Part shown: positions 47,506 to 63,524 of the stretch, piece by piece
Position numbering within the stretch: the stretch's first letter is position 1
Layout: the number at the start of each line of letters is the position of its first letter
DNA from: a virus
DNA length: 64,000 bases
IMG/VR virus record: IMGVR_UViG_3300036826_000588
Span: 1-64,000 of that record
Strand: one strand, 5' to 3'
Notes under the pieces: model-generated
Databases searched by the model: none
What the model was told of the DNA's origin: nothing
The model's input: the letters and a program-made list of their open reading frames with translations, nothing else
Made by a program: the position numbers and the translations under genes

Positions 47506-47535
47506 CCGCCACCTCTTTTCAGCCATGCCGCATCG

Positions 47536-47779: not shown

Positions 47780-47792
47780 CGGACGGTTCGGT

Positions 47793-47866: not shown

Positions 47867-47883
47867 CCGAGCCGATCCGACAC

Positions 47884-47972
47884 TCCAGGGATGCTGTGAC
47901 GGTATTGGCGGCCGGGCTTTGAACTCGGTGGGGCGAGAGCCCTCGGGGGTTCGACTCCCTCCCCTGGAACCA
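47884..47972 (+). tRNA. tRNA with TTG (Gln) anticodon and long variable arm
   Basis: TCCAGGG/CCCTGGA acceptor, loop CTTTGAA, GGGC-GAGA-GCCC arm, ACCA. Confidence 0.8.
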
Positions 47973-48052
47973 GCAGCTACCATGGATCCATGACGAAGCC
48001 ACTGCTATGACGGCCCCGGACTGGCCGAGGCCGATCCACAGGAGGCTTTGCC

Positions 48053-48319
48053 GTGTACCGCATGACCCTCTTCCTCCCGCCTTGGGCCGTCAGCACCGAT
48101 GACCAGGCGATGGAAGTCTGCGATCAGATCGCCACGCTGTGCGACCAGCTCCTGGGCCGCCCCAGCTCGGGCGAGTCGAAGCTCACGTACGTCCTGACCA
48201 GCGAGGTCGACGAAGACGAAGATGACGACGACGCCCAGGACCGGTGGATGCAGGAGAACCTGTTCCACCCGCGCGTGCGCGGCGTCATCATCCCGCGTCC
48301 GGTCGGCGAACTTCAGTAG
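48053..48319 (+). CDS. Small acidic hypothetical protein
   Basis: AGGAGG RBS. Confidence 0.55.
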   Translation: MYRMTLFLPPWAVSTDDQAMEVCDQIATLCDQLLGRPSSGESKLTYVLTSEVDEDEDDDDAQDRWMQENLFHPRVRGVIIPRPVGELQ

Positions 48320-48320
48320 T

Positions 48321-48396
48321 GCGGGCGTAGCTCAGTTGGCAGAGCGCGGGCTTGCCAAGTCCGAGGCCGCGGGTTCGAGGCCCGCCGCTCGCTCCA
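48321..48396 (+). tRNA. tRNA-Gly(GCC)
   Basis: Canonical cloverleaf, TCCA. Confidence 0.95.
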
Positions 48397-48401
48397 CCCG
48401 A

Positions 48402-48476
48402 GGGCTCGTAGCCGAGTCTGGTCAGGCACCGGTCTGCAAAACCGGTACGACGCCAGTTCAAATCTGGCCGAGCCCT
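48402..48476 (+). tRNA. tRNA-Cys(GCA)
   Basis: Loop CTGCAAA, U73. Confidence 0.9.
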
Positions 48477-48823
48477 CCGGTGGAACCCTCTCGTCAGAGC
48501 GGCTGGATGACCAGGCGCGACGGTTTGCCGCTGGCCTCCAGGGCCGCGTTGACGAACGAGATCGCGTCGATGATGGCCATCGTGATGTCTTCCGGATCGT
48601 AGCCATGGAGGACGCTGGCGCTTCCAGCGCTGCTCTCGATGTCCTTGGCGCTCACGATGACGACGGCGCGCACGTCGGCGGCCTCCGGGCCGAGCTCCAC
48701 GAGCACCTGTCTCATGTGATCGGCGATGCGGCTCAGTCGGTTCGGCGGTTCGAACGCCTTCCAGGCGCCGGGCGTCAGGCCGTCAGGCACGATGAACTCG
48801 GTCATGTGACCAGTATCGACCAC

Positions 48824-48900
48824 GCCGAGGTAGCTCAGATGGTAAGAGCGCTCGCCTGAAAAGCGAGAGGCCGCTGGCCCGAACCCAGCTCTCGGCGCCA
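48824..48900 (+). tRNA. tRNA-Phe(GAA), variant T-loop CCCGAAC
   Basis: Cloverleaf, GCCA end. Confidence 0.85.
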
Positions 48901-49123
48901 CCTTCCCCGGTGGATCGGGTTTGCAGCTCCGCTGACGACGGATGGGACGATCGTCTGCCGGCGGCAACGTCGGCACCCGCGAACGCGGCATAGCCGATCG
49001 CCCTGGTCAGGCGTCGAGCTCGCCCGATCCCCGGGGAAGGTGGTAGGATTGCAGCGTACGCCCCCGGTCCGCCTCTCACGGAAGCCGCCGGGGGCATGGC
49101 TTCTCCCTCCAGCGCTTCGCCGT

Positions 49124-49199
49124 GCCCGGGTAGCTCAGATGGGAGAGCGCCTGTGTCACATACAGGAGGCCACTGGTTCGAGGCCAGTCCTGGGCACCA
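49124..49199 (+). tRNA. tRNA-Val(CAC)
   Basis: Cloverleaf, ACCA. Confidence 0.92.
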
Positions 49200-49302
49200 A
49201 TCCCTTCCGCATCTTCGCTGGGAGGAGCCGGACAGTAGTCGCTGACGAGCGGTGAAGGTGCCGACGAGCCGCCAGCTCGCTCCCTCCAGCGGCGATGCGT
49301 AC

Positions 49303-49377
49303 GCCCGAGTAGCTCAACGGTAGAGCGCCAGCATGACACGCTGGAGGCAGGAGGGTCGGCACCTCCCTTGGGCACCA
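49303..49377 (+). tRNA. tRNA-Val(GAC), variant T-loop GTCGGCA
   Basis: Cloverleaf, ACCA. Confidence 0.85.
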
Positions 49378-49381
49378 ACAC

Positions 49382-49467
49382 TGGCAGGTGGCCGAGAGGT
49401 AAGGCGCCCGGCTGTTAACCGGAGACCACCGAGAGGTGCGCGGGTTCAAGTCCTGCCCTGCCAGCCA
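49382..49467 (+). tRNA. tRNA-Asn(GTT) with long variable arm
   Basis: Loop CTGTTAA, CACC-GAGA-GGTG arm, GCCA. Confidence 0.88.
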
Positions 49468-49495
49468 ATCCCTACAACCACGTTGAGCTGCTGAT

Positions 49496-49571
49496 CGGGC
49501 GGTGGCGCAGTAGGCAGCGCGCTTGGCTGGGGGCCAAGAGGTCGTCGGTTCGAGACCGACTCGCCCGACCA
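49496..49571 (+). tRNA. tRNA-Pro(GGG)
   Basis: C1-G72, ACCA. Confidence 0.92.
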
Positions 49572-49637
49572 GCAGCTCAACATCGGGGTCGAGCGGCGCC
49601 CTGACGGGGGTCGCTCGGCGCCGGCCCTTCACAACAT

Positions 49638-49715
49638 CGCGCGGCAGAGCAGTCAGGAGTGCTCGCTTGCCCCGGACGCAAGAGATCGGTGGTTCGAGTC
49701 CACCTCGCGCGACCA
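49638..49715 (+). tRNA. tRNA-Pro(CGG)
   Basis: Loop CCCGGAC (C33), C8, ACCA. Confidence 0.88.
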
Positions 49716-50100
49716 GCAACTTTCCTCCGCAGACCCTGGACGATCGGCGGTCCGTTTGAGTACCATGCTCGCTGGCATGCGAATGGCAGCGTGGGCGTGG
49801 GTGGGTTGTGGCATTGGTGCGTTCTTGGCGGGTGTGGGCGTGGGCATGGTGCTCGGGTACTACGGCTTCATCCACGGCTGGTTCTGGATGCCACTCCCGC
49901 CGCCTGTGATGTAGGAATACACCCTCTCTGAGGCCGCCTGTGCGTGCGCAGGCGGCCTCGCTGAGCCTGAGCATTGAGTAAGCTGAGGTCGCTGGTCGAG
50001 TTCGTCATCGCGCTGTTGGTCATGTGCGCGATCGTCGTTCTGGTTGTCCTGGTGGCTTCCTACTTCGGCGGCTTCCCAGCGTCGTAGCCTCCGGTCCTGT

Positions 50101-50173
50101 CGGGCGGTAGCGTAGCGGTCAACGCGCGCGGTTTGGAACCGCGAGGTCCGGTGTTCGACTCACCGTCGCCCGA
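50101..50173 (+). tRNA. tRNA-Pro(TGG)
   Basis: Cloverleaf; no encoded CCA. Confidence 0.88.
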
Positions 50174-50381
50174 CAGGCTCGCGGGGCAACCGAACAGGCC
50201 CGGTACTCCGGAGCCATGATCTCCAGATTCCTCTTCGGGCTCGCGGCGCTGGCCTTCCTGCTGGCGCTCGCTCACGTCACCCTCGGCACGCTCGATCTGC
50301 TGCCGCTGGGGCTGTTCCTTCTCGCGCTGGGGCTGCTGGCCGCAGACGTGCCGTGGCCGACCTGGCGCCGGCCGTGAACGC

Positions 50382-50457
50382 AGGGGTGTAGCTCAGCCGG
50401 CAGAGCGCTCGTCTCCAAAACGAGTGGTCGAGGGTTCGATTCCTTCCGCCCCTGCCA
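50382..50457 (+). tRNA. tRNA-Trp(CCA)
   Basis: Canonical cloverleaf, GCCA. Confidence 0.95.
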
Positions 50458-50480
50458 ACTTCCGTCGATCGCTCGATGAT

Positions 50481-50556
50481 GGGGACGTAGCTCACCAGGG
50501 AGAGCACCTGTTTCGCAATCAGGAGGCAGAGGGTTCGAGTCCCTCCGTCTCCACCA
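50481..50556 (+). tRNA. tRNA-Ala(CGC)
   Basis: G3:U70 pair, ACCA. Confidence 0.93.
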
Positions 50557-50598
50557 TCGGGTTATCCGTCGCTCACGCTCATTGTCGCCATGCTTCAT

Positions 50599-50674
50599 GG
50601 CCCGTTCGCCAAGTGGTCAAGGCGCGGGACTTTCAATCCCGTATACGCGGGTTCGAGCCCCGCACGGGCTACCA
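50599..50674 (+). tRNA. tRNA-Glu(TTC)
   Basis: Cloverleaf, ACCA. Confidence 0.93.
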
Positions 50675-50902
50675 TTCGATTCGCGAACTCGACGGGAGGG
50701 GCGGCCCACGAGGCCGTCCACCCCTCGACAGGGCAACTACGCCATCGATGGAACCTTGCCGACGGAATGAGGTACCGCGGCACAATCACCCTCACGCTGC
50801 CGGTCGTGGCCGACCTGGCACCCGAGGTGAGCTTGAACCTCGTGGTCGGGCCGGTGCGCACGCGGCACCTCCAGCAAACCGCTTTGCAAGGAGAGCCGCG
50901 CG

Positions 50903-51241
50903 ATGGCGACGACAGTTCAGCTCACCGACGTCCAGGAAGTCCGGCTGTCGATCAGCCCGAAGGACAGCCAGGGGAACCTGGCGTCGGTTGACGGTGTCCC
51001 GACCTGGGAGTCGAGCGACGAGTCGGTCCTGACCGTCGCGGCCGTCTCCGACGACGGCCTGATGGCGGATGCCGTGACGGTCGGCCCGCTGGGAACCGCG
51101 ACCGTGACGGTCACCGCCGACGCGGACCTGGGCGACGGCGTCACCACGCTGAGCGACACGGTGGACATCACCGTCGTGGCGAGCCAGGCGTCCGCCCTGA
51201 ACGTGGCGGTGGGCACGCCGACCGAGCGCCCGGCGGCGTAG
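50903..51241 (+). CDS. Ig-like domain protein
   Basis: AGGAG RBS; PTWESSDESVLTV...G.ATVTVTA pattern. Confidence 0.7.
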   Translation: MATTVQLTDVQEVRLSISPKDSQGNLASVDGVPTWESSDESVLTVAAVSDDGLMADAVTVGPLGTATVTVTADADLGDGVTTLSDTVDITVVASQASALNVAVGTPTERPAA

Positions 51242-51303
51242 CGTCCATTCGGACCTGAAGACGGCAGTACCGGGCGTCCGGCCCGGGAAGGTGAAGTGCC
51301 GTC

Positions 51304-51332
51304 CGACGGCGGGGCACGGTGCCCCGCCGTCG
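51304..51332. repeat. Perfect 14-bp inverted repeat
   Basis: CGACGGCGGGGCAC-G-GTGCCCCGCCGTCG. Confidence 0.7.
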
Positions 51333-51341
51333 CTTACTTGC

Positions 51342-51412
51342 TGCGGAGCCAGGCGGCCGCGGGGCCTCATAAGCCCTGCCGGGCTCGGTTCGACTTCCGG
51401 CCTCCGCAACCA
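51342..51412 (+). tRNA. tRNA-Met(CAT)-like with truncated D-arm
   Basis: TGCGGAG/CTCCGCA acceptor, loop CTCATAA, TTCGACT, ACCA; only about 12 nt between acceptor and anticodon stems. Confidence 0.65.
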
Positions 51413-51432
51413 CTTCGACTCCAACCAAGCGT

Positions 51433-51511
51433 GCCGCGTTGGGCCAGTCTGGTTCAAGCCACCACTCCCTCAAAGTGGAGATCGCGGGTTCAAATCCCGC
51501 CCGCGGCACCA
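51433..51511 (+). tRNA. tRNA-Glu(CTC)
   Basis: Loop CCCTCAA (C33), ACCA. Confidence 0.9.
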
Positions 51512-51875
51512 ACCTCAACATCGAACGAGCGATCCACGCGGTTACCCTTCAACACGAGAAGACCAGCACTCGCTCCGGGAAACCACTTCCCTGTCGGCCA
51601 GTCTTCTCCGCTGGCGGCCGGCAGGACACGGATCGCTCAGCCAGCAGAGTACGCGAGGAGGTGGACGACGTGCCCGGGTAGTTATGTCGAAACGACCGAA
51701 CTACCTTGGAACCTTCCTCTCCGACATGAAGGAAGCACGTCGCTACTCGTGCGACTGGCGCAGCGCACCAGACAAGGCCGCCGCGCACCGCAAGTTCCGA
51801 CGCCTGGCACGCCAGCTCCTACTCCATCGCCAGGAGCCGCCAACGCGACTGGGCATGGGCTGGTACTGGTGAGGG

Positions 51876-52731
51876 TCAGCGGCGGAAGAGGACCCAGGCG
51901 AGGGCCGCCGCCAGGAAGATCACCAGCGCCGCCAGTACGCCGATGGTGACGTACAGGCCGTTGAGGTAGCGGCCAATGCCGCGCCCGAGGTCTTGCACGA
52001 GGGGAGCGTAATCGAACGTCAGCCGGGGTGGCCGTGGCCGAGAGGAGAGGCGCCACGCTGTGACCGTGGTATACGCGGGATCGTCGACCCGCCGGTCACC
52101 CCAGCGACGTTCAGGACTCACCGTCGTCCCCGTCGCCGTCCTCGTCATCGTAGACGGGCCGGTGTGGGTCGCGCAGGCGGAAGAGGATCTCCTGGGCCCT
52201 GAACAACGTGTCCATCATCGGCACGATGCGCTGCCTGACCTTCAGGCTCTCGTACTCCTCGCGAGACGGGACGCTGTCCAGGAGCTGGTTCGCGCGCTCG
52301 CGCAGCGTGCCCGGCATGCGATCCACGCCCTGGAGGTTCAGGTCTTCGAGCTGGAAGAGTAGGTCGTCGATCCCGTGGATAACGCGGTCGAGCTGGTCCT
52401 TGCGCCACTTGCGGCGGATCTCCTCCACGTGGAGACGTTCGATGTCGCGGTTGGCTTCCTGGATCATCATGGCCTACCGGAGATAGACGCTGCGGCATGT
52501 TGCCGCGGTCGGTCAGTCGTCGGTCGGCCTGAACGTCCAGATGTGCCCTTTGGTGCACCTCGCGATCCACTGGAGGGGGTCGTCGGTGATGTAGTCGCTG
52601 TCCAAGTTCACTTGGCCCGCGGCCACGCAATCCGGACAGAACGCCTTCGCGGCAGGGATGTCGCGACCGGCGATGGTGACGCTGGTGATCTCGCGGGTCT
52701 CCCCGCGGTTCGCAGCCATTCGGAAGATCAT
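51876..52731 (-). other. Three small antisense genes inside the tRNA array (51876-52148 membrane protein, 52111-52470, 52513-52731 zinc ribbon)
   Basis: ORF track and plausible composition. Confidence 0.55.
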
Positions 52732-52742
52732 ACTCTCGACGT

Positions 52743-52819
52743 GCGCGGGTAGCTCAGCCTGGCAGAGCAGCGAGCTGATATCTCGAAGATCGGAGGTTCA
52801 AGTCCTCCCCTGCGCACCA
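52743..52819 (+). tRNA. tRNA-Ile(GAT)
   Basis: Cloverleaf, ACCA. Confidence 0.92.
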
Positions 52820-52847
52820 ACTTGAAGTACCATCCCCGCTCTCACTT

Positions 52848-52921
52848 CCGGCGGTAGCTCAGGAGAGTAGAGCGGTTCCTTTATAAGGTTCAGGTCGCGG
52901 GTTCGAGGCCCGTCCGCCGGC
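52848..52921 (+). tRNA. tRNA-Ile(TAT)-like, weak anticodon stem, no CCA
   Basis: CCGGCGG/CCGCCGG acceptor, loop TTTATAA, two T-T mismatches in the stem. Confidence 0.65.
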
Positions 52922-53131
52922 TGAGAGCTGGGGGGTGGGTGGCCATGTAGCTCGCCCGCAGGGGACCATCCATCCGTGGGTTGGGAGGCCAGGCGGATCA
53001 TCTCAGCCGGTCCACCGACGCGGCCACCACCCCGCAGCCGCAGCGAAGTGTGGCAAACTGCGCCGTCCTTTGGTATAGGGCACGTGATCCGCCTTTGGGA
53101 CATACGCCCGCCGCTTGGAATTCCCGATCGT

Positions 53132-53207
53132 GCGCCCGTAGCTCACCGGATAGAGCGCCTCCCTGCGAAGGAGGAGGCAGCAGGTTCGATTCCTGCCTGG
53201 CGCACCA
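53132..53207 (+). tRNA. tRNA-Arg(GCG)
   Basis: Loop CTGCGAA, A20, ACCA. Confidence 0.9.
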
Positions 53208-53391
53208 TCTCTCTTCACATAATTGGTGGTCGTGCGTCGTACCGCTTCGCTACCTTCCCGGCCCGGTATGGCACAGTTCCTTGCAGGGCTCGCGATTGGT
53301 TTGATCGTCGGCGCGTGCGGCGGCGTGTTCGTCATGGCTGCTCTCGTCAGCAGCGCTCGTTCGGACCGGCCTGGATAGGTCGGCCCCTCAC

Positions 53392-53467
53392 GCCCTTGTA
53401 GCTCAGTGGTAGAGCAGCCGCCTTGTAAGCGGAAGGTCGGGGGTTCGATTCCGCCCCAGGGGCTCCA
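53392..53467 (+). tRNA. tRNA-Thr(TGT)
   Basis: Cloverleaf, TCCA. Confidence 0.9.
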
Positions 53468-53661
53468 TCTGCAAGTTTTGGCCGTCTCACCTCCCCTATA
53501 TAGGTAGGAGGTGATTCCAGGATGGCCCACCCGAAGTGCTGCGTTTGCGATCGACCGGCGGATCGGATCGACGAGGAGTATGGCGAGGCGTTCTGCCGCC
53601 GGTGCTGGGACAGCTACCCGCCAGAAGAACAAGGCCCATACCGCCTCATCGATCCTGACGA

Positions 53662-53738
53662 GGGCCTGTAGCTCAGCGGATCAGAGCGCCACGGTTCGAA
53701 CGTGATGGTCGCGGGTTCGAGTCCTGCCAGGCCCTCCA
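53662..53738 (+). tRNA. tRNA-Arg(TCG)
   Basis: Loop GTTCGAA, TCCA. Confidence 0.9.
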
Positions 53739-53801
53739 CTCATACCCTCACAAGCCTTGTCACTGGCGCGTTTCTGACAATGTGGCTTATAGTGGCCCTT
53801 C

Positions 53802-54188
53802 ATGGCAACGAGAACACGGCGGAGAACGGCGGGCGCCGGTGAGAGCATCGCGGCTCAGATCCAGCAACTCGTGAAGGAGCGCGACGACCTCAAGGTCGAG
53901 AACGCGAACCTCAAGGCTCACTTGGAGGCGATCAGCTCAGCGCTGAGGCACGTGGGCGCCCAGGCAACGGGTGGTCGCGGGCGCGGGCGCAGCTCCGGGC
54001 TGGCAGCGGCTGCCCCGGTCTCCGAGAAGCGCAAGCGCCGGCCGATCACCGACCCGGAGGTGCTCGCGCGGCGTCATGCAGCACTCGCGAAGGCGCGGGC
54101 CGCGCGTGCAGAGCGCCTGGCGGCAGCTCGCGCAGCCGCACAGGGAGAGACGGCGGCGCCGGCCGAGCCCGCGGTGGTCGAGGCGTAG
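53802..54188 (+). CDS. Basic coiled-coil protein (possible nucleoid-associated protein)
   Basis: Coiled coil then RGRGR and KRKRR; TATAGT box just upstream. Confidence 0.6.
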   Translation: MATRTRRRTAGAGESIAAQIQQLVKERDDLKVENANLKAHLEAISSALRHVGAQATGGRGRGRSSGLAAAAPVSEKRKRRPITDPEVLARRHAALAKARAARAERLAAARAAAQGETAAPAEPAVVEA

Positions 54189-54215
54189 AGCGCAACGCGT
54201 GCAGGACAGGTTGAC

Positions 54216-54291
54216 GCCCCCGTAGCTCAGAGGACAGAGCAGGGAGCTTCTACCTCCAAGGCCGGGCGTTCGAGTCGTCCCGGGGGCACCA
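54216..54291 (+). tRNA. tRNA-Arg(TCT)
   Basis: Cloverleaf, ACCA. Confidence 0.9.
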
Positions 54292-54798
54292 CCTGACTGC
54301 TACACTCCCTTCGTGAGCGGGGGACCCGGAAAGCTGCTCTCCAAGCCGCCGAAGACAGGCTGGGGGTCGTGGCTGCTGACGGCGGCGATCATCGCCGGGG
54401 CGATCGTGGCCGAAAGCCTCTTCCGTCCCCAGACAAACTCGATCATCCGCGTATGGACAGACATCGCGGGCCGACCCAGCGTTGAAGTCACCGAAAGCGA
54501 GCGTGACCATCGTGTCTGAGCCCGCCGCAGTCCCCGCAGCAGTGCCGACCGTTCAGGTTCAGGTGGGGCTGCACTTCAAGCTGGTCTTCATCGTCCTGAC
54601 GCTGATGGTCGCGTTCCTCTTTCTGGCCGCCGGCTTCCTGGCCCTGTTTGGGAACCGCTGGGGTGGAGATCCGGGGGCCATTTCGTCCGTCACCAGCGCG
54701 CTGATGGAGGCGGAGAAGTACCTCGTTGGCGGACTCGTCGGCATGGTGGGCGGGAAGGCCGTCCACTAAGCCCCCAGGCGGCGTGCGGCCCGAATACA

Positions 54799-55527
54799 AT
54801 GGGCCGCGGCATGAGCAACGACCTCCCTCAACTGTCTCCTGATGGCAAGTGGCGCTGGGATGGCCAGCGGTGGGTTCCCAACGAGAGCGCTCCGCCAGGC
54901 GGGGCGACGAACAGCATGACGCCGCCCGTTGCGCCGGCCAGACGCAGTCGCCGCTGGCCCTGGTTCGTCGCCGTGGCTGCGGTGCTGTTCGTCGGAGTCT
55001 GCACCACCGCGGTCGCGAACTCGGGTGGCAGCGGACGCAAGGCTGCTGGCGTGTCGGCCACCCAGGCGCCGGCAGCGCCGACCCAGGCGCCCACGGCAAG
55101 GACTGCCCAGCCCGCTGCTCCGGCTCGCGACGGGTCCTGCTCGCCGCAGCCCTGCGCCAACGACAACTACGGCTGGATCGTCAACGTCAGCAGCTTCAAG
55201 TACGACGCGCCCAGCGGCAACGAGTTCGAGAAGCCCGAGGTCGGCAACGTGTACGTCACCCTCGCGGTGACCTTCACCAACAAGCTCGGCAGTGAGCAGC
55301 ACGCGAACCCGCTCAACTTCGTCCTGCTGGACGGGGCCGGGGTCAAGCATACGGTCACGTTCACCGACGCCTGCCCCATCTGGGACGCCGTCAATCTCAC
55401 GCCTGGCGCGTCGTTCGGACCGAAGTGCCTGGCGTTCGAGGCGACCGCGGGCAAGCCGGGCGGCCTGACGCTGGTCTGGACGCCGTCACTGCTCGGCGGC
55501 GGCGACTACGACATCAAGCTGAGCTAG
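54799..55527 (+). CDS. DUF4352 (MPT63-like Ig-fold) membrane protein
   Basis: N-terminal QLSPDGKWRWDG, TM helix, FEKPEVGNVYV...NPLNFVLLDG.G. Confidence 0.75.
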   Translation: MGRGMSNDLPQLSPDGKWRWDGQRWVPNESAPPGGATNSMTPPVAPARRSRRWPWFVAVAAVLFVGVCTTAVANSGGSGRKAAGVSATQAPAAPTQAPTARTAQPAAPARDGSCSPQPCANDNYGWIVNVSSFKYDAPSGNEFEKPEVGNVYVTLAVTFTNKLGSEQHANPLNFVLLDGAGVKHTVTFTDACPIWDAVNLTPGASFGPKCLAFEATAGKPGGLTLVWTPSLLGGGDYDIKLS

Positions 55528-55566
55528 CGCGCGACCCGAGGCGCGAGTACATCGATCCGTGAACGT

Positions 55567-55641
55567 GCGTCCGTAACTCAGCGGCAGAGTGGCGGCCTCT
55601 TAAGCCGAGCTGCGTGGGTTCGAGTCCCACCGGACGCACCA
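55567..55641 (+). tRNA. tRNA-Lys(CTT)
   Basis: Cloverleaf, ACCA. Confidence 0.92.
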
Positions 55642-55940
55642 TCTTCAACTCGAATCCGACACCCCAGGCGGCGGCCCTGGTAGGCTCGCGGCGACGGGCG
55701 GTGGATGGCCTCCGATCTCCCTGGAGGTCTGCAAGATGCAGAACATCATCGTCGGTCGCTATGAACCCACCGAGGGCCTGCTGCGCCCTGACGGCACCGT
55801 CGAGCGCGTGTGGGACGGGTGGATCGAGCCGGCGGACCGATCATGGATCGCCTTCGTTCGGACGGCGGACCACCTGCCGGAGGTCTACCTGAACCGCGAC
55901 CCGGAGACGGGAGCTGTCATCGAGTAGGTCCCCCGGGCGT

Positions 55941-56015
55941 GCCGGTGTGGCATAGGTGGCTGTGCAGTTGCCTTTTAAGCTCCAGACGCGGGTTCGACTC
56001 CTGCCGCCGGCACCA
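55941..56015 (+). tRNA. tRNA-Lys(TTT), mismatched anticodon stem
   Basis: Loop CTTTTAA, ACCA. Confidence 0.8.
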
Positions 56016-56248
56016 CCGCTTGCATCACGCAGGCCATCTCCTCCATGGACATGGACGCCTGTTGGAGCGCTTTGAGGAACGGCCGCAAGTCCACCATCAG
56101 CCGGGCTGAATGGTCATGGCCGGCCATTCGGAGCCAGGCCGCCCGATCGAGGCCGTGGAGCTCCGCAAGCCGTTGCTGTTCCTGCTGTTCGTGACGCGCG
56201 CGATCGGCGGCGGCGGCGGTGGCCATCTTGCTCTGGAACGTCACGTAC

Positions 56249-56326
56249 GCCTCCGTAGCTCAGCGGACAGAGCGCCGGCATCCGAAGCCGGGTCCGTCGC
56301 AGGTTCGATTCCTGCCGGAGGTACCA
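56249..56326 (+). tRNA. tRNA-Arg(CCG)
   Basis: Cloverleaf, ACCA. Confidence 0.9.
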
Positions 56327-56762
56327 TCCCGCCCACCTACTGGCTGGGCGCGCTCTCCCGCTTCAGCTTCAGGTACGCCTCTCGCCACTGGTCGACGAGG
56401 CTGCCCGCCCTCGCCGCCTGGACGCGAGCGATCGCTGCGTTGTGCCAGGCGACGACGGTCCAGTGGACCACTGCCCACCCGATGATCGAGAGCGCGAACC
56501 AGAACATGGCCAAGCCGAAGACGAACCAGTCATGCTTGACGGCGGCCGCAACGGCACCACTGCCGTTGATGCTGGCAGCCAGGAAGAGGATCCAGCTCAA
56601 GATCGTCTGCGCCCGCCGGGCACGGGCCCACAGGTCAGCAAAGTCCGACTGCGAAGCTCGGACTTGGTCGGCATCGTCAGAGGAGAGGGGGAGGGAGTCA
56701 GCCATGGCTCCGCGGCACAATACAGGGTGGGGACCCGATCGCGCTACCTTTCAGATCATCGT

Positions 56763-56838
56763 GGCCCCGTAGCTCAGGGGATAGAGCGGCAGCGTCCTAA
56801 GCTGCGCGCCGGGGGTTCAAGTCCTCCCGGGGCCACCA
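56763..56838 (+). tRNA. tRNA-Arg(CCT)
   Basis: Cloverleaf, ACCA. Confidence 0.93.
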
Positions 56839-57091
56839 TCTTCTCTTCGGTACTATCCCCGACATGACGGCCGAACTGGAAACCGAGCTGGAGCCGGACC
56901 TGGAGCCGGCGGTGTGCCTGACAGAACACATCGCCCACCTGATCCGGCGCACGGAGCGCAAGGCCGTGTGCGGGGCCTCGCCAGTCCTGCGTCTCTCCTC
57001 GATGGAGGATTGGCAGACCGCCTGGCGCGAACAGGCGAACACCTGGGACATCTGCCCTGGCTGCGCGGCCGGAGCAGTCGACGAGCTGAAC

Positions 57092-57167
57092 GCGGGCGTG
57101 GTGTAGACGGCAAGCACGGCGGTCTTCCAAATCGTCGGCACGGGTTCGAAGCCCGTCGCCCGCTCCA
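57092..57167 (+). tRNA. tRNA-Gly(TCC)
   Basis: Cloverleaf, TCCA. Confidence 0.92.
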
Positions 57168-57282
57168 ACCTCTTCGCCTATTCGGATCCGAGACGCCCGA
57201 CAGGCGCGTGATACCCTTCGAGACCTCCTGGATGGAGGCGCCGGGGTGTCATGCAGCGCCCCGGCGCCGCGGTTTCCCCAGG

Positions 57283-57705
57283 TCAGGACGCCGCGGCGAG
57301 CACGTCCTCCTTGGAGTAGCCCATCAGCTCGGCGGCCGTGAGCAGGAGGTTCTTCCACTCCAGCTCCAGCTCCAGCTCCTGTTCGCCCCAGCCACCGGCT
57401 GCGCGCTTGAGGGTCTCGATCAGCACCTTCGCCACCGGCAGGAACATCGCCGGCTGGACGCCGTAGCGGCGGTGCCGTTCCCCGAGTGCGCAGAGGTGCG
57501 TCTTCAGGTACTCCGGGTCCTCCAGGTGGAGCATCAGCTCGGCCATCTTCTCGCCGAACATCCGGACCTGGCCGTCCATGTTCCGCGGGAAGATGCGGCG
57601 CAACTCCGGGCACTCCTGGAACAGCGACTCGTAGAAGTGCTGGACCAGCCGGCCGTCGCGGTTGACCGCTTCCTCGAACGACGTCCGCAGCAGTTGTACG
57701 TTCAC
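57283..57705 (-). CDS. Single-domain globin (flavohemoglobin/Vgb-type globin fold)
   Basis: FYESLF..CPELRRIF, LGERHRRYGV (proximal His), GGAGG RBS; the frame stays open upstream to 58011. Confidence 0.85.
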   Translation of the reverse strand: MNVQLLRTSFEEAVNRDGRLVQHFYESLFQECPELRRIFPRNMDGQVRMFGEKMAELMLHLEDPEYLKTHLCALGERHRRYGVQPAMFLPVAKVLIETLKRAAGGWGEQELELELEWKNLLLTAAELMGYSKEDVLAAAS

Positions 57706-58088
57706 GTCCCCTCCCGGTGAGCGGGGGTACGCCGTCCAGGGCTGCGGGCCACGCTCCACGCGCGCGACGCCAAGGGCTTCCCGGAGCTGCCAGTGCGCAC
57801 TCCCAGCGCTGGCAGCCTCACCGGCGAAGACGAACTCCGCGCCCTGGTCATGCAGCGCCTGCATGACCTCGACGGCCTCGGCGCGCCCGCCCTGGCAAAC
57901 GGTGGCCCACCAGCGAGGACCGATCCTCATGCAGACGTACGTCAAGCGCTGCCAGGCGGGTAAGAGGTCAAGCTCCTGACGCCTTTCGCCCAGCCGTTGA
58001 AGCCAGCGCACGCCGACTACCCCCTCTCGCTCACGATCGGGGGATTGAAGCGCAGTCGAGACCGCTGTGTCAAGTTTCCGACACTGGC

Positions 58089-58117
58089 TTGACGAATGGG
58101 CAGAAGTGCGCTATGGT
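58089..58117 (+). promoter_or_regulatory. Promoter of tRNA array 2
   Basis: TTGACG-17-TATGGT, same -10 as the array 1 promoter. Confidence 0.75.
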
Positions 58118-58126
58118 GACGATACC

Positions 58127-58174
58127 GTGTTCAGGTTGTATCTCTACTTGCTACTTAGTCGGTCATCCCTGTAG
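58127..58174 (+). CDS. Putative leader peptide MFRLYLYLLLSRSSL
   Basis: GTG 9 nt after the -10 box; 11 of 14 codons are Leu/Tyr/Ser; overlaps hairpin 58151-58206. Confidence 0.65.
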   Translation: MFRLYLYLLLSRSSL

Positions 58175-58207
58175 CCCGCAAGGGCCTCTCGGGGATGCCG
58201 CTGTAGT

Positions 58208-58296
58208 GGGTGGTGAACATCGGACCGGCTCGGTGCTCCGTCTCGAAAACGGATGAGGCTGCAAGGCCAGGGGTTCAACTCCTCCGCCACCCGCCA
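58208..58296 (+). tRNA. tRNA-Ser(CGA) with 8/4 fold
   Basis: GGGTGGTG/CGCCACCC 8-bp acceptor, 4-bp T-stem, long variable arm, GCCA. Confidence 0.85.
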
Positions 58297-58337
58297 ACTG
58301 ACTTCGCTTGCGTTCGTCGTGTTCATTCACAAGACGT

Positions 58338-58424
58338 CGGCGGGTGGCGGAATCTGGCAGACGCACCGGGTTCAGACCCCGGGCCGGAAGGCACCTGCGG
58401 GTTCGACTCCCGCCCCGCCGACCA
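58338..58424 (+). tRNA. tRNA-Leu(CAG)
   Basis: GCGGAA..GGCAGACGC D-arm, long variable arm, ACCA. Confidence 0.92.
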
Positions 58425-58435
58425 ATACCTCTCTC

Positions 58436-58521
58436 GTCGGAGTGGCGGAACGGTAGACGCGCCGGGTCGAGAGCCCGGTGGGCACCAGCCCGTGGAGGTT
58501 CAACTCCTCTCTCCGACACCA
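58436..58521 (+). tRNA. tRNA-Leu(GAG)
   Basis: Loop TCGAGAG (C33), long variable arm, ACCA. Confidence 0.92.
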
Positions 58522-58522
58522 T

Positions 58523-58607
58523 GCGTGGGCTCGACTATGTGGCGAAGACAACGGGCTGTAAACCCGCCGTGAAAGCTGTGGTGGTTCGACTCCGCCCCCA
58601 CGCACCA
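58523..58607 (+). tRNA. tRNA-Tyr(GTA)
   Basis: Loop CTGTAAA, long variable region, ACCA; irregular D-arm. Confidence 0.88.
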
Positions 58608-58649
58608 ACACCCATCGCAACCGCGGCAATTTGCCGTAGAATCGGTGGC

Positions 58650-58901
58650 ATGACGAGAGCGATTCCCGAAGATGGCGAGGCCGAAGAGGCAGAGCAGGTG
58701 AAACACACGCTCCAGTTGCCGCTGAAGCTCTGGGAGGCATTCGGGCGGCGTGCGCGCCGGAGCGGCATTTCCAAAGCGGAAGCGCTGCGCAGAGCGGTAT
58801 GGGTCTTCAACTTCCTGGCCGACAGAATCGATGACGGCTCCGAGATCATCATTCGTGACAAGGATGGCAAGGAGCAGCGCCTGGTCATCTCGCCCTACTG
58901 A
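58650..58901 (+). CDS. Ribbon-helix-helix (CopG-like) regulator
   Basis: HTLQLP...W......ARRSGISKAEALRRAV; TAGAAT 7 nt before ATG. Confidence 0.75.
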   Translation: MTRAIPEDGEAEEAEQVKHTLQLPLKLWEAFGRRARRSGISKAEALRRAVWVFNFLADRIDDGSEIIIRDKDGKEQRLVISPY

Positions 58902-58906
58902 TCGAC

Positions 58907-58984
58907 GCCGTCTTACCCCACGCTGGCAGAGGGCGCCGGCTCAAACCCGGTTCAGGGCGGGTTCGACTCCCGCAGACGGCACCA
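58907..58984 (+). tRNA. tRNA-Leu(CAA) with short variable region
   Basis: Loop CTCAAAC, ACCA. Confidence 0.88.
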
Positions 58985-58986
58985 AC

Positions 58987-59079
58987 GGAGCGGTGGCCGA
59001 GTGGCAAGGCAACGGTCTGCTACACCGTCGAGGGGGCCCGTAGAGGGTTCCTGCGCGAGTTCGATCCTCGCCCGCTCCG
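58987..59079 (+). tRNA. tRNA-Ser(GCT)
   Basis: GGAG start, long variable arm, G73, no encoded CCA. Confidence 0.92.
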
Positions 59080-59570
59080 CTCTCCCCCTGAGCGTCCGAT
59101 GCCGGACAGTAGAACGCTCTGGAGAAGGGCACGCTGGCAGGACACCGCATGTGGACAGCCATCAGCACCGCACCCGATACGGTCTCAGGCGCTGCCGCCC
59201 TGCTCGGCGGAGTGCTCGGGATGGTTGCCTGGAGCCTGGAGCTCCCGTTGGAGCCGGTCGCAGCGGTCGCCGGCCTCGTGACGCATGTCGTGGCCTGCCG
59301 GCTGGGTCATGCTGGCCCGGCCGGCCAAGCTCTCCATGCCGCCTGTGAAGCATGGCATGCTGGATGGCACGCGGTGGCCAGGCTGGCCATCGCGTGACGG
59401 TCTCCCTCAAAAAGGTCGAGCCCAAGCGCGGACGCCAGGGCTCGAACCAGGGGGGGAGGGATGTCGGATAGAGGGGGGACGGCTGGTCGGCCACCGGCGC
59501 CGGGCATGGACCGGGCCCGCAACCAACCTGCCGGCGTCAAGTGTAGTGCGTCGGGCTATCTTGACGCCAC

Positions 59571-60059
59571 ATGAGCAAGGCTGCGCTTCGGCGTCTGTAC
59601 GACGAGCTTCCGACCATCGAGTGCCAGGGCCTGTGCCAGGACTCCTGCGGGCCGATCGGGATGTCTGATGAGGAGTACACGCTGATCTGCCGTCACCTCG
59701 GTCGGCCGATCCCCGACGCCGGGAAGGCTGACCAGGGCGTGCGTATCTGGCCGCCGCTGCCGGACCTGACGTGCCCGCTCCTGGGCGCGAACGGGCGGTG
59801 CACCGTCTATGCTCTGCGGCCGCTGATCTGCCGCCTCTGGGGCGTCGTGGAGTCCATGCCGTGCCCGCACGGCTGCCAGCCCACGCCGCGGTACCTGACC
59901 AACCGGGAGGGGTTCGTGCTGCTCCAGCGCGCCGACGGGATGACCGCGGCGGAGGCCGAGGCGTTCATCGGCTACGGCGAGCACCGCGGGTTCCTGGGGG
60001 CTGTCGAGGAGCTCTATGGGCTGGCGCGGACGCCCATCATCCGGCCCCGCTCTGGATGA
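59571..60059 (+). CDS. YkgJ-family CxxCxxCC cysteine-cluster protein
   Basis: CQGLCQDSCG...CPLL...GRCTVY..RPLICR.WG. Confidence 0.85.
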   Translation: MSKAALRRLYDELPTIECQGLCQDSCGPIGMSDEEYTLICRHLGRPIPDAGKADQGVRIWPPLPDLTCPLLGANGRCTVYALRPLICRLWGVVESMPCPHGCQPTPRYLTNREGFVLLQRADGMTAAEAEAFIGYGEHRGFLGAVEELYGLARTPIIRPRSG

Positions 60060-60405
60060 GCTGCATCTGCCCCTTCAGTTCGCGCAGGCGGGCCCGGCGG
60101 CCGGCCGCCGTCAGGCGGTGGCGGATCCCCGAGCGCTCCAGGTAGCGGGCTTCGAGGTTGGGGCGGTACTCGGCGACCGCCTCCACCCAACCGGGCAGGG
60201 GATCGCCCCTACCCTCCTTGGCGCAGGCGAAGCACCAGGCCAGCGGCGGCTGCCCCTGAACACGGCGCTTCGCATTCAGGCTTCGGAGCAGGACTTCCCC
60301 GCCCATCGCGCCCGGCTCGGGCGCGACCGTCATGTGCTCGAACGTGGAGAAGGGATTGACCCGGGTGTCGTGGACCGGACAGGTGTACTGGGCGACGTGG
60401 CTCAT
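60037..60405 (-). CDS. Hypothetical zinc-binding protein
   Basis: CPVH...CFAC; ATGA coupling. Confidence 0.55.
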   Translation of the reverse strand: MSHVAQYTCPVHDTRVNPFSTFEHMTVAPEPGAMGGEVLLRSLNAKRRVQGQPPLAWCFACAKEGRGDPLPGWVEAVAEYRPNLEARYLERSGIRHRLTAAGRRARLRELKGQMQLIQSGAG

Positions 60406-61403
60406 ACCGTGCGGCGGGGGCGGTACTCGGGGGACCGGCTGATGGTCTGGGCGGCCCGCGGCCGCTTCGGCTGCTCGAAGCGCGGCAGGACGTCGGCCGG
60501 CGGCAGGCCGGTGCAGTAGTCCTCGCGCAACAGCGCGGCGACCTTGCCCCACGCGGCGCGCGCGGTGTAGGTGTTGACGCTGACGACGCCGGCCATGGCA
60601 GCCGTCACCAGCTCGTCCGGGTCCTGCTCGTGGAGGAAGGCGGCCAGGTCTTCTCGGTCGAACCCGTGCTCGCGGTAGACGTGGACGAAGGCGCCGATGC
60701 CCAGCAGGACGTTGACCTTGTGGGCGGCAGTGCGCCGCTCGCGCGCCTCCAACTGCGCGTCCGTGTACGTGGCCTTCCCGGTCGGCGCCGGCCACGCCCG
60801 GTTGATGAGCCAGAGTGTCTCGTCGAGGACGTCCTCGCCCCACGCGAGCAGGTGTTCGAGCACCTGGACGCACGAGATCACCTCCGCCGAGGAGTGGGTG
60901 GCTACCTTCAGGTGGTGCCGGCTCAGGATGTTGCGGATGGCGAGCGCCGCCGGGTCGCGCGAGATCAGCGACGCCTGGTAGCGATGGACGACGTGGACGG
61001 CGAGCCGACCACGGCCGTTGAGCTCCTTGAAGAGGTACGCCTCCTCGGCGACGCTGAGACCCTGGTGACCGAAGACCCAGATGCCGGGCACGACGCTGCC
61101 CTCCAGCTCGCCCGTCTCCACCAGCTCGTTGTGCAGCAGGGCAGCGGCCTGCCGCGTCGCGCCGTCGAACAGCCAGTACTTGCCGTCGCGGCGGAGGCTG
61201 CCGAACAACCCCTGACCGAGGATCTGGTTCCAGTTCCGCGCCATCGGCTCGATCCGACTCCGGCGTTGCCGGTCCTCCGGCTGGTAGGCACGGTCGACCT
61301 GGAACTCCTTGGGATGCACCCACTCCGGTTTCCCGGACTGCATAAGCATCGCCTGGAGATCGTTTGGACTCTCGGTGGTGATGGGGGCGGCCGCTAAAGC
61401 CAT
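60402..61403 (-). CDS. ParB/Srx-like protein (DUF6551-like)
   Basis: FQVDRAYQ...I..MARNWN...R.DGKYWLFDGATR..AA...EEAYLFKELN. Confidence 0.75.
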   Translation of the reverse strand: MALAAAPITTESPNDLQAMLMQSGKPEWVHPKEFQVDRAYQPEDRQRRSRIEPMARNWNQILGQGLFGSLRRDGKYWLFDGATRQAAALLHNELVETGELEGSVVPGIWVFGHQGLSVAEEAYLFKELNGRGRLAVHVVHRYQASLISRDPAALAIRNILSRHHLKVATHSSAEVISCVQVLEHLLAWGEDVLDETLWLINRAWPAPTGKATYTDAQLEARERRTAAHKVNVLLGIGAFVHVYREHGFDREDLAAFLHEQDPDELVTAAMAGVVSVNTYTARAAWGKVAALLREDYCTGLPPADVLPRFEQPKRPRAAQTISRSPEYRPRRTV

Positions 61404-61535
61404 GCGAGGTCCCTCCTCGGACGTGGATGTGGTGGCTGACGCACGGCCGGGCACGGGCCGGGCCGGACGGTTTTCGGCGCGTATGCTAACTCGGCGCTCG
61501 CGTTTTGGTGCCCTGGTGTCGTAATATTCCCGCCC

Positions 61536-61670
61536 GGACGGGCCGAACGGGGGGCCGTTAACGCTGATTGGTACAGCACCTCCCTCACAAGGAGTTCCAC
61601 TCGGTTCGAATCCGGGGAACAGCCCGGCGCAAGCCGGGAAAACCGGTCGCCCAAAACCGTATGTCCGTCC
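61536..61670 (+). ncRNA. Y RNA (Ro60-binding, tRNA-like)
   Basis: Terminal stem GGACGGGC/GTCCGTCC with GGCCGAA motif, D-like and T-like (TTCGAAT) arms; directly upstream of Ro60. Confidence 0.8.
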
Positions 61671-61698
61671 GCCAACCCTCCGTCGACCAGGGGTTGGC
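61671..61698 (+). terminator. Hairpin after the Y RNA
   Basis: GCCAACCC/GGGTTGGC. Confidence 0.5.
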
Positions 61699-61739
61699 GT
61701 CTTCGCGCATGGTGGGCATTTCGTGGGAGAAGGAAGTAG

Positions 61740-63524
61740 ATGCAGCGGTACACCGGCATGTTGTCGCGCACCCCTCAGCAGGCCCCGATTCCGGGCGTGC
61801 CTGGAATGGTGCCGAACCGTGCCGGTGGCTGGGGCTTCGAGGTCAGCGACCGCGTCCTGGCCGAGCGTTTCATCCTCCTCGGGACGGTCCACGGCTCGTA
61901 CTACGCAGAGCCCGAGCAGCTCACAGGCCGGGCAATCGACGCGATCGACCGGCTGCTGGAGAGCGGCGACGGCGAGTGGCTGGTGCAGAAGATCGTCGAG
62001 ATCAGCACCCTTGGCCGCGCGCCCAAGCAGGACCCTGGCATCCTCGCCCTCGCCCTGGCGCTGAAGACCGCCCCTGACCGGCGTACGCGCCGCCTGGCGG
62101 CCGACGCGGCTCCGCGCGTGTGTCGGACCGTCTCCACCGCTTCGGACCTGGCTGACGCTCTCAAGGGCCTCGGGCCGGCGCCGGCGGCCGAAGGCCACAA
62201 TCGCGAGAAGCCGGCCATCCGGTCGCGTGCCCAGCGACGCGCCATCGCAGGCTGCTTCGAGGCGTGGGCCCGCGATCCAGCACGGCTGGCCTACCAGCTC
62301 ATCAAGTACGGGCGGGCCGCCGACAACCGGCGCCGGGGGCCGGACGGTTCCCAGGGAGCCATCTGGCGCGCTGTCGACCTGGCGCGGCTGTCGCACTTCC
62401 GTGCCTCCAATCCAGAGGTCGACGCGCTGATGTCGTGGCTGCACGGCCGGAAGGTGGCCAACCTGCCCGCGCAAGTGCGGGCCTACGAAGAGGTGCAGCG
62501 CGTGGCGGCCGTGCCGGGGCAGCTCAGCGAGCACTTTGCTGGCGAGAAGTTCGCCACGGAAGCGCGCGCCAAGGCTACAGAGCGCATCGCCGAGCTCGTG
62601 CGCGAGCACCGGCTGCCCTGGGAGTGCGTCCCAAGCGAGTTCGTGAACCTGCCGAGCGTCCAGCGGGCCCTCTTCGAGGACATGCCCCTGCACACGATGA
62701 TCCGTCAGCTCGGCCGGCTGACGGCGGGCGGTCTCTTCGACGCGCCTTCGAGCGTCCAGATGGCCGTCGACCGGCTCCGCGACGTCGAGCGGATCCGGAA
62801 GGCGCGCGTGCACCCGATGGCCGCCTACCTGGCCGCCATGATCTACGGCAGCGGCCACGGACTGAAGGGCAAGGGCTCATGGCGGCCGGTCCCGGAGATC
62901 AAGGACGCCCTCATGGCGGCCTTCCTGGGTTCCTTCCGCAGTCTGAATGCCAGCGGCAGGCAGATCGTCGTCGGCGTCGACTGCTCCGGCTCGATGGTGC
63001 AGCACGACGTGCTCGGCATCCCGGGCTTCTCGGCACAGGAGGCCGCCTTCATCATGGCGTGGGCCACGGCACGCGTCGAACCGCGGGCCCGCGTGGTGGC
63101 CTTCGGCGAGCAGGCCGAGGAGATCGAGCTGCGCGACGTGCAAACGCTGGACGAGCTGCGGCGCCGGGCGCGCATGGTACGGATACGCCACAACAGGGGT
63201 ACTGACTGCTCGCTGCCGATCCTCTACGCCCTGGAGCGCCCAAACTGGGGCGAAGTGGATGCGTTCGTGATCTACACGGACGAGGAGACCTGGTACAGCC
63301 CGACGATCCACCCGATCGAGGCGTTGTGGCAGTACCGGGCCCGCTGGGAGCGGCGGACGCGGCTCGTCTCCGCCGCGCTCGTGGCCAACCACTACAGCCT
63401 CGTGAACACGGCGCCGGACCGCGGCGAGTCCGTTCAGGACGATGCCGGCGTGCTCGCGGTGACGGGCTTCGACTCGGCCGCGCCAGCGATCATCGCCGAC
63501 TTCGTGCGCTCAGGGGACGGATAG
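61740..63524 (+). CDS. rsr: Ro60/Rsr (TROVE + VWA) RNA-binding protein
   Basis: PQ..PIPG...MVPNRAGGWGF, RFILLGT..GSYY, GRAPKQ.P, LPWECVP, MP...MIRQLGRLT, VHPM, GVDCSGSM, TDCSLP, VIYTDEETW, GFDSAAP. Confidence 0.95.
   Translation: MQRYTGMLSRTPQQAPIPGVPGMVPNRAGGWGFEVSDRVLAERFILLGTVHGSYYAEPEQLTGRAIDAIDRLLESGDGEWLVQKIVEISTLGRAPKQDPGILALALALKTAPDRRTRRLAADAAPRVCRTVSTASDLADALKGLGPAPAAEGHNREKPAIRSRAQRRAIAGCFEAWARDPARLAYQLIKYGRAADNRRRGPDGSQGAIWRAVDLARLSHFRASNPEVDALMSWLHGRKVANLPAQVRAYEEVQRVAAVPGQLSEHFAGEKFATEARAKATERIAELVREHRLPWECVPSEFVNLPSVQRALFEDMPLHTMIRQLGRLTAGGLFDAPSSVQMAVDRLRDVERIRKARVHPMAAYLAAMIYGSGHGLKGKGSWRPVPEIKDALMAAFLGSFRSLNASGRQIVVGVDCSGSMVQHDVLGIPGFSAQEAAFIMAWATARVEPRARVVAFGEQAEEIELRDVQTLDELRRRARMVRIRHNRGTDCSLPILYALERPNWGEVDAFVIYTDEETWYSPTIHPIEALWQYRARWERRTRLVSAALVANHYSLVNTAPDRGESVQDDAGVLAVTGFDSAAPAIIADFVRSGDG

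Follow-up and report, generated by a model that had tools for sequence, protein, structure and literature searches.

The window analysed herein is the first 64 kb (positions 1 to 64,000) of an 89.8-kb virus record from IMG/VR (IMGVR_UViG_3300036826_000588; CheckV completeness 87 %), a high-GC soil phage with a G+C content of approximately 68 %. ARAGORN identifies 34 tRNA genes, every one on the + strand and spanning 47433-61625. Two tRNA blocks can be recognised: block 1, consisting of 28 tRNAs of 16 isotypes, and block 2, consisting of six Ser, Leu and Tyr tRNAs, and no tRNA for Leu, Ser or Tyr occurs in the record outside block 2. The subject of this analysis is the short stretch that heads block 2, in which a promoter-like site is followed by a small open frame (leader 2) composed largely of Leu, Ser and Tyr codons. 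The features of this locus are as follows:

58089-58117, + strand: promoter-like site TTGACG-17-TATGGT, heading block 2 (consensus scan)
58127-58174, + strand: leader frame 2, comprising GTG, 14 codons and TAG (peptide VFRLYLYLLLSRSSL)
58150-58207, + strand: stable hairpin (-32.7 kcal/mol, z = -3.07, 0/200 shuffles as stable)
58125-58223, + strand: possible extended helix, pairing 58125-58133 and 58144-58149 with 58208-58223 (predicted folds)
58208-58296, + strand: tRNA-Ser(CGA), apparently of the 8/4 acceptor/T-stem type, with an encoded CCA (Rfam match 58208-58292)
58338-58424, + strand: tRNA-Leu(CAG) (ARAGORN, Rfam)
58436-58521, + strand: tRNA-Leu(GAG) (ARAGORN, Rfam)
58523-58607, + strand: tRNA-Tyr(GTA) (ARAGORN, Rfam)
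58650-58901, + strand: ribbon-helix-helix (RHH) gene, 83 aa (Pfam RHH_1, 20.0 bits against a cutoff of 20.5)
58907-58984, + strand: tRNA-Leu(CAA), 78 nt, with a short variable region (ARAGORN)
58987-59080, + strand: tRNA-Ser(GCT) (ARAGORN, Rfam)

A sequence-only reading of this DNA had proposed that a Leu/Tyr/Ser leader peptide stands at the head of an operon made only of Leu, Tyr and Ser tRNAs. The consensus scan recovers the promoter that it had placed at 58089-58117, and the order of the six tRNAs downstream (Ser, Leu, Leu, Tyr, Leu, Ser) is as it described; that the operon contains only tRNAs is incorrect, as the RHH gene intervenes between tRNA-Tyr and tRNA-Leu(CAA). Within 47000-62000, three promoter-like sites are found on both strands, compared with 0.8 +/- 0.9 in shuffles, and only two of these are on the + strand, at 58089 and 47128. 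The frame of leader 2 is thus a short one located between a promoter and the first gene that it would control, starting 9 nt past the -10 hexamer and ending, with its TAG at 58172-58174, 33 nt before tRNA-Ser.

Leu, Ser or Tyr is specified by 11 of the 14 post-start codons of leader 2, and direct reading of the frame bears out the five types of Leu codon, both Tyr codons and three Ser codons that had been claimed for it. Amongst 146,654 stop-free 14-codon windows from the six frames of the 89.8-kb genome, just two reach this value, and these represent leader 2 and an off-frame poly-Ser run. Shuffling of the 42 nt concerned yields 11/14 without a stop in 41 of 200,000 cases when mononucleotide composition is kept (a rate of 0.0002), and in 27 of 20,000 when dinucleotide composition is kept (a rate of 0.0014). 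The bias is also specific to the frame, with each of the two remaining frames of the same DNA giving 4/14. With regard to individual anticodons, eight of the 14 codons are cognate to block 2 and five of its six anticodons are covered, a combination that occurs in 7 of the 146,654 windows. The codons were said to be unusual for this genome, and this holds for 7 of the 11 Leu/Ser/Tyr codons, which are rare in the long genes of the phage itself: TTG, which is used twice (7.7 % of Leu codons), CTA (2.1 %), CTT (4.1 %), TAT (6.5 %), AGT (5.8 %) and TCA (4.7 %).

A companion to this arrangement exists at the head of block 1, where the following features are found, together with the gene that separates the two blocks:

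47128-47156, + strand: promoter-like site TTGACC-17-TATGGT, heading the 28 tRNAs of block 1 (consensus scan)
47166-47291, + strand: leader frame 1, 41 codons with a GTG start, reading VRTQPFFVNQQPCIARVGDPMAPWHAVEGQALGTKEVGAGR
47319-47349, + strand: terminator-like hairpin of leader 1, 13 bp, followed by GUCGUUGUA
57283-58011, - strand: globin gene, divergent, between tRNA blocks 1 and 2

As the globin gene parts the two blocks on the opposite strand, a second promoter is needed for block 2. The GTG of leader 1 lies exactly 9 nt past TATGGT, which is the geometry of leader 2. Its codon content is complementary: all 16 isotypes of block 1 are represented, Ser and Tyr are absent, and Leu and Met occur once each. 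Of 103,745 stop-free 40-codon windows, six (at two loci) combine the 16 isotypes with at most one Leu/Ser/Tyr codon. In total, 34 of the 40 codons are cognate to block 1 and 26 of its 28 anticodons are covered, with both of these cognate values attained in three of the 103,745 windows, all at the leader-1 locus. When the leaders are exchanged the match is poor, with one of 40 leader-1 codons fitting block 2 and three of 14 leader-2 codons fitting block 1. From the genome windows, the shuffles and null models, and the complementary leader 1, the tie between the codon content of leader 2 and the tRNAs behind it is supported.

Structural predictions for leader 1 include a segment of the frame, within 47245-47268 (pairing partner 47246-47266), that pairs with the 5′ arm of the terminator-like hairpin. 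The in-frame pairing (A:C) is predicted at -33.6 kcal/mol, compared with -30.4 kcal/mol for the hairpin (C:D), and A:C comes first in folds of successive prefixes. In this regard leader 1 looks like a classical attenuator, unlike leader 2. A relative that is approximately 90 % identical is present in a rhizosphere metagenome (run X4), with a contig over leader 1 displaying 42 differences and 5 gaps. Among the 31 of the 42 differences that are listed, the GTG at 47166 becomes ATG, both hexamers are intact with five changes in the spacer, five amino-acid changes all lead to block-1 isotypes, and the stop codon is hit, with offsets that suggest a 1-nt insertion right before it. The end of the frame is not readable in this relative, which provides a weak hint only.

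The hairpin that had been described over the 3′ half of the leader-2 frame (at 58151-58206) is recovered at 58150-58207. Its 5′ arm comprises codons 9-15 of leader 2 together with the stop codon, its cap is a GCAA-capped inner stem, and its 3′ arm stops 1 nt short of tRNA-Ser. Predicted folds also contain a form in which the first 26 nt of the leader lengthen the hairpin, drawing in the initial 16 nt of tRNA-Ser and thereby competing with the cloverleaf. This is the only alternative pairing found for leader 2, and sets the leader against the tRNA-Ser cloverleaf. At -73.3 kcal/mol for the extended state versus -72.0 kcal/mol for hairpin plus cloverleaf, the two are predicted to be nearly iso-energetic. 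In prefix folds the extended state comes first, and when 58124-58150 is blocked, mimicking a ribosome, the cloverleaf becomes the minimum. Shuffles of the upstream segment produce an extension as stable in 38 of 2000 cases. The extended helix, as a competing fold of leader 2, is suggestive but not compelling.

Relatives were located in Joint Genome Institute (JGI) metagenomes by means of a globin alignment, and consist of L003 (15.6 kb, globin 93 % identical) and L004 (1.2 kb, 95 %). Alignment of the window to L003 gives the following:

58000-58088, upstream DNA: 73 matches, 16 mismatches, 1 gap
58089-58117, promoter: 27 matches, 2 mismatches (both in the spacer), 0 gaps
58118-58207, leader: 88 matches, 1 mismatch, 1 gap
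58208-58295, tRNA-Ser: 86 matches, 2 mismatches (both in the variable arm), 0 gaps
58296-58337, spacer: 29 matches, 8 mismatches, 22 gaps

Leader 2 is therefore conserved to the same degree as the best tRNAs in this comparison of two sequences, for which a recent recombination tract may also account. The promoter hexamers are unchanged in both L003 and L004, with variation in the spacer and the upstream DNA. The frame of L003 contains a single change, T58149C, by which the Leu codon TTG becomes the Ser codon TCG, read by the tRNA that lies first downstream, and the count stays at 11/14. In the extended helix, this change replaces a U-G pair by C-G. L004 ends at the equivalent of 58143, and over this shorter stretch keeps both hexamers, the GTG and TTC, with three of its four frame changes falling in the internal loop of the extended helix. 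As to the codon bias of the frame, L003 keeps the full Leu/Ser/Tyr count and L004 turns one Tyr into His.

Block 2 of L003 again contains Leu, Ser and Tyr tRNAs only, with the addition of Leu(TAA). This added tRNA-Leu(TAA) lies after Ser(GCT) at 5269-5355 (- strand) of that contig. Between tRNA-Tyr and the RHH gene L003 carries an insertion of approximately 400 nt with an open frame (~5650-6200, - strand), and the long variable arm is missing from its Leu(CAG).

Sequences from RNA libraries also cover the locus. Soil metatranscriptome contigs are identical to 58140-58676 and 58687-59173, for which DNA carry-over is possible. One RNA-run contig extends from the 3′ half of leader 2 through the hairpin and four tRNAs into the beginning of the RHH gene, and the contigs show no ends. 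In the RNA run X2, the depth bin 57742-58158 has a value of 1.65, compared with 11.1 in the next bin, and a contig begins at 58140 with 20 unaligned letters. This step would fit a start near the predicted site, and is not counted as evidence, as it is drawn from contigs and a stretch lacking cover is no proof.

Taken as a sensor, 58089-58207 would consist of a promoter and a short translated leader, with codons that belong to the families (Leu, Ser and Tyr) decoded by the six tRNAs that follow. Were these tRNAs to become scarce or be cleaved, the leader would be read slowly and the ribosome would stay on it, keeping single-stranded both the 5′ arm of the hairpin and the upstream segment that can pair with tRNA-Ser. 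A leader held open in this way would lead to more functional tRNA from block 2, either because a pause or termination hairpin is prevented, or because the first tRNA is freed to fold and be cut by RNase P. With fast decoding the ribosome would leave, the helix would form and output would fall, the net effect being negative feedback on tRNA supply. Leader 1 (47166-47291) would serve the other 16 isotypes likewise. We infer that the frame is translated, that stalling affects output, and that this effect runs through read-through or through folding and processing of the first tRNA; the scarcity itself might arise from host anticodon nucleases. That leader 2 is a translated, codon-matched sensor gating tRNA output is considered to have about an even chance of being correct.

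A number of observations weigh against this interpretation. The hairpin is followed by U GGGUGGUG, which is the G-rich 5′ end of tRNA-Ser. A U-tract is absent, and in the consensus scan 58118-58337 contains no terminator-like site. Leader 2 therefore has the hairpin but not the U-tract of an intrinsic terminator, and termination by the usual rule is unlikely there. For intrinsic termination, mycobacterial RNA polymerase requires a U-tract. The 5′ arm would also be covered by a ribosome that has reached the stop codon (58172), as it would by a stalled one, and the simple model therefore requires fast release. In terms of codons, no phage tRNA is cognate to CTA, TCA or TCC, which make up three of the 11 for Leu, Ser and Tyr, and the statistics applied to the frame were picked after the pattern had been seen. 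The relatives found are close ones only, and in L004, where the frame sits at the contig end, it has undergone changes of Arg to Gln and of Tyr TAT to His CAC.

The start of translation adds to these difficulties. There is no Shine-Dalgarno sequence at leader 2, and the GTG of both tRNA leaders, at 9 nt past TATGGT, is 3 nt beyond the expected start site. The phage has leaderless-type promoters, with an ATG or GTG 6 nt after the -10 hexamer in five of seven strong promoter-like matches; at these sites (6638, 18933 on the - strand, 20245, 21793 and 22099) the start codon is followed by AAC. Given the 9-nt versus 6-nt spacing, a 5′ end of 3 nt is expected ahead of the GTG of the leaders if the geometry of the start site is shared. 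At rrn P1 promoters, the start is unusually far from the -10 hexamer. A review speaks of translation that begins on start codons situated at the 5′ end or close to it (PMC9031893). The switching on of matching tRNAs by a stalled ribosome, as envisaged in the sequence-only reading, is supported with respect to the link between codons and tRNAs. The switch itself is a proposal, against which the lack of a U-tract, of a terminator-like site and of a Shine-Dalgarno sequence, and the displaced GTG, all count.

The most likely of the alternatives is an untranslated 5′ leader acting as RNA only, in which the hairpin and its extension would contribute to precursor stability, or to processing by RNase P or RNase III, and the Leu/Ser/Tyr codons would be a by-product of a pyrimidine-rich strand pairing with G-rich partners. 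Such a leader would account for a significant hairpin that adjoins the 5′ end of a tRNA, for a pairing with tRNA-Ser that is nearly iso-energetic with the cloverleaf and matched in stability by few shuffles (38/2000), and for substitutions in relatives that convert a U-G pair to C-G (T58149C) or fall in the internal loop (three of four in L004). It also requires neither a Shine-Dalgarno sequence nor a GTG at the expected start site. The codon bias bears on it in both directions, as judged by null models in which every base pair is kept and only the letters that pairing permits are varied. These nulls centre on 5-7 of 14 Leu/Ser/Tyr codons, compared with approximately 2.4 from the genome-wide rate of 0.17, which is a further point against the sensor. 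With a 5′ arm this rich in pyrimidines, structure and composition therefore account for part of the bias, but not all of it: 11/14 is reached in just 43 of 200,000 sequences when the extended helix is kept, and in 1,058 of 200,000 (~0.005) when only the hairpin is kept. Leader 2 thus exceeds structure-preserving as well as mono- and dinucleotide nulls, and its control codons are enriched beyond chance. A leader of RNA only leaves unexplained the restriction of the bias to one frame, as well as the 16 complementary isotypes of leader 1 and the avoidance of Leu, Ser and Tyr therein. It is regarded as unlikely.

A variant of the sensor that draws on the same predicted pairing regards the two leaders as a phage homeostat for tRNA supply, in which each would be translated so as to sample the codons that its own tRNA block serves, with leader 2 operating as a co-transcriptional folding switch and not by termination. 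A ribosome-free leader would bind the initial 16 nt of tRNA-Ser (8/4 type) by base pairing and trap this tRNA unprocessed; a slow ribosome would hold the leader away, such that tRNA-Ser folds and matures. This version is put forward only tentatively, and is on balance improbable.

Coincidence would mean that a short frame arose at random close to the promoter, where the DNA is AT-richer. This reading gains some credence from the manner of discovery, as the pattern was picked by eye out of 64 kb. The local stretch is also T-rich (18 T in 45 nt), favouring Leu, Ser, Tyr and Phe, and one Tyr is lost in L004. Shuffles with this same composition nevertheless reach 11/14 at rates of only 0.0002 (mononucleotide) and 0.0014 (dinucleotide), and both leaders are situated at the only two + strand promoter matches of 47000-62000, with identical spacing. 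Moreover, each leader is amongst the top two loci of the genome for its own tRNA set. Two independent outliers, each with its own promoter and its own block, form the main reason that coincidence is not accepted, and it is deemed very improbable. That the product is a functional hydrophobic micropeptide, with its position before the tRNAs incidental, is scarcely credible, since a hydrophobic peptide whose frame is kept in L003 explains neither the complementary leader 1 nor the use of five different Leu codons, most of them rare.

The tRNAs of block 2 have several features of their own. tRNA-Ser(CGA) is detected by Rfam only, through a tRNA-Sec-type match of 34.5 bits that is below the gathering score of 47, and is missed by ARAGORN even at a relaxed setting; its CGA anticodon is taken from the Rfam alignment. 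By appearance, it has an 8-bp acceptor stem and a 4-bp T-stem. Serine tRNAs of the 8/4 type are reported in certain bacteria and their phages by Mukai et al. (PMC5389517). An Rfam search at E ≤ 0.1 reveals no extra tRNA hidden within block 1. Leu, Ser and Tyr are the class II tRNA isotypes of bacteria, and a reading of block 2 as a structural cluster of class II tRNAs was considered and rejected, as Leu(CAA) has a short variable region and as two tRNAs of block 1, Gln(TTG) with 89 nt and Asn(GTT) with 86 nt, carry long arms. The split between the blocks is hence by isotype and not by shape. These two long-armed species lie at 47884-47972 (Gln) and 49382-49467 (Asn), and tRNA-Gln(TTG) also matches the tRNA-Sec model, with 33.9 bits. 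Both could be allo-tRNA-like species with another amino-acid identity, which would blur the split by isotype.

The RHH gene has TAGAAT 7 nt upstream of its ATG and no Shine-Dalgarno sequence (58637-58652), and may accordingly have its own promoter. Its product, likely a DNA-binding repressor, could regulate the tRNA promoters. Flanking the tRNA island are a 2H/LigT-like phosphoesterase fused to an HTH domain (39894-41876) and Ro60, with TROVE and vWA domains (61740-63524), both of RNA-repair type, as well as a sigma-70-family factor (44367-45662) for which eight homologues only, all weak, are found. The phage globin (57283-58011, - strand) has an N-terminal extension and belongs to a tiny family of 9 clusters among 5.8 billion proteins. 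Its cellular relatives comprise only three loci, in two Candidatus Dormibacteraeota metagenome-assembled genomes, which are likely a clue to the host.

The phage lineage is rare. Within IMG/VR viral contigs, single-protein scans with the globin, the RHH protein and the gene upstream of leader 1 return no relatives, the globin alignment and the exact leader strings likewise have no match, and a scan with the portal protein yields one 4-kb fragment (L002) that is without tRNAs. Nothing close exists amongst GenBank phages, where blastn returns only 70-nt pieces of tRNA and tblastn with the portal protein reaches 31 % identity at most. A more distant relative is most likely to be represented by P0002, a globin that is 60 % identical and shares the phage-type indels. 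Searches with a generic promoter pattern matched 85 stretches, 13 of them with tRNAs and seven of these from one unrelated phage family of 42-46 % GC. Members of that family (L016, L045, L065, L066, L073, L079 and L084) have TTGACC-17-TATGGT, 9 nt and GTG located 349 nt before a tRNA array (of up to 26 tRNAs). The GTG frame there has 14 codons and is unrelated; after it come a T-run, another promoter and a gene for a small protein.

Amongst known systems, the multivalent leader-peptide attenuators that govern transcription of amino-acid operons (trp, his, leu, thr and ilv types) share with the present case a short frame right after the promoter that is rich in codons for what is sensed and employs rare synonyms, as well as an RNA hairpin that overlaps the end of the frame. 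The leu leader of enterobacteria, for example, employs rare CUA codons. Leader 1 additionally resembles them in its competing terminator-like and antiterminator pairings. They differ in that tRNAs and not biosynthetic enzymes would be controlled here, so that the leader would sense what the genes under its control produce, and in that leader 2 has no U-tract terminator, no classical 1:2 / 2:3 / 3:4 set of pairings and no Shine-Dalgarno sequence.

Failing on the terminator, leader 2 is closer in form to the leaderless polycysteine frames of mycobacteria, for which an amino-acid-responsive mechanism is outlined whereby a ribosome stalled on a leaderless short frame blocks an RNA duplex (Canestrari et al., bioRxiv 10.1101/834739). 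As outlined there, these frames have a GTG or ATG at or near the 5′ end, no Shine-Dalgarno sequence and no need of a terminator, and the stalled ribosome blocks a duplex that hides a downstream element. That element is the ribosome-binding site of a protein gene, whereas here it would be only the 5′ strand of a tRNA; furthermore, the GTG of leader 2 is probably 3 nt from the 5′ end, and three amino acids are involved instead of one. A link between tRNA cleavage, ribosome stalling and an attenuator with a short upstream frame is also drawn for whiB7, where the authors infer that attenuation at an upstream open reading frame is switched on by a tRNase that depletes tRNA-Ser(CGA) (PMC10287673). 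That case, as presented, concerns a host stress regulon and not a phage tRNA block.

Phage tRNA arrays have themselves been presented as substitutes for tRNAs cleaved by host defences (PMC13096335), and a large tRNA set near RNA-repair-type genes (2H/LigT-like and Ro60) is common to such arrays and the present phage. They differ with respect to a regulatory leader peptide: a full-text literature search, with subscription journals outside its reach, found none described for replacement-tRNA arrays and none published ahead of tRNA genes, in keeping with the earlier statement that this was not known for a phage tRNA operon. Leader-peptide sensing is textbook knowledge for amino-acid synthesis genes. 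If the sensor is real, it would mean that phages regulate their tRNA sets through feedback from the speed of decoding, and would provide a handle on why phages carry tRNAs at all, be it for codon supply or for the replacement of cleaved tRNAs. This phage would be a clean case in which to address that matter, as the division of the amino acids between its two complementary leaders is precisely that between the two tRNA blocks. Should the two leaders indeed constitute a homeostat with such a folding switch, the phage would be able to sense the loss of tRNAs to host anticodon nucleases within seconds.

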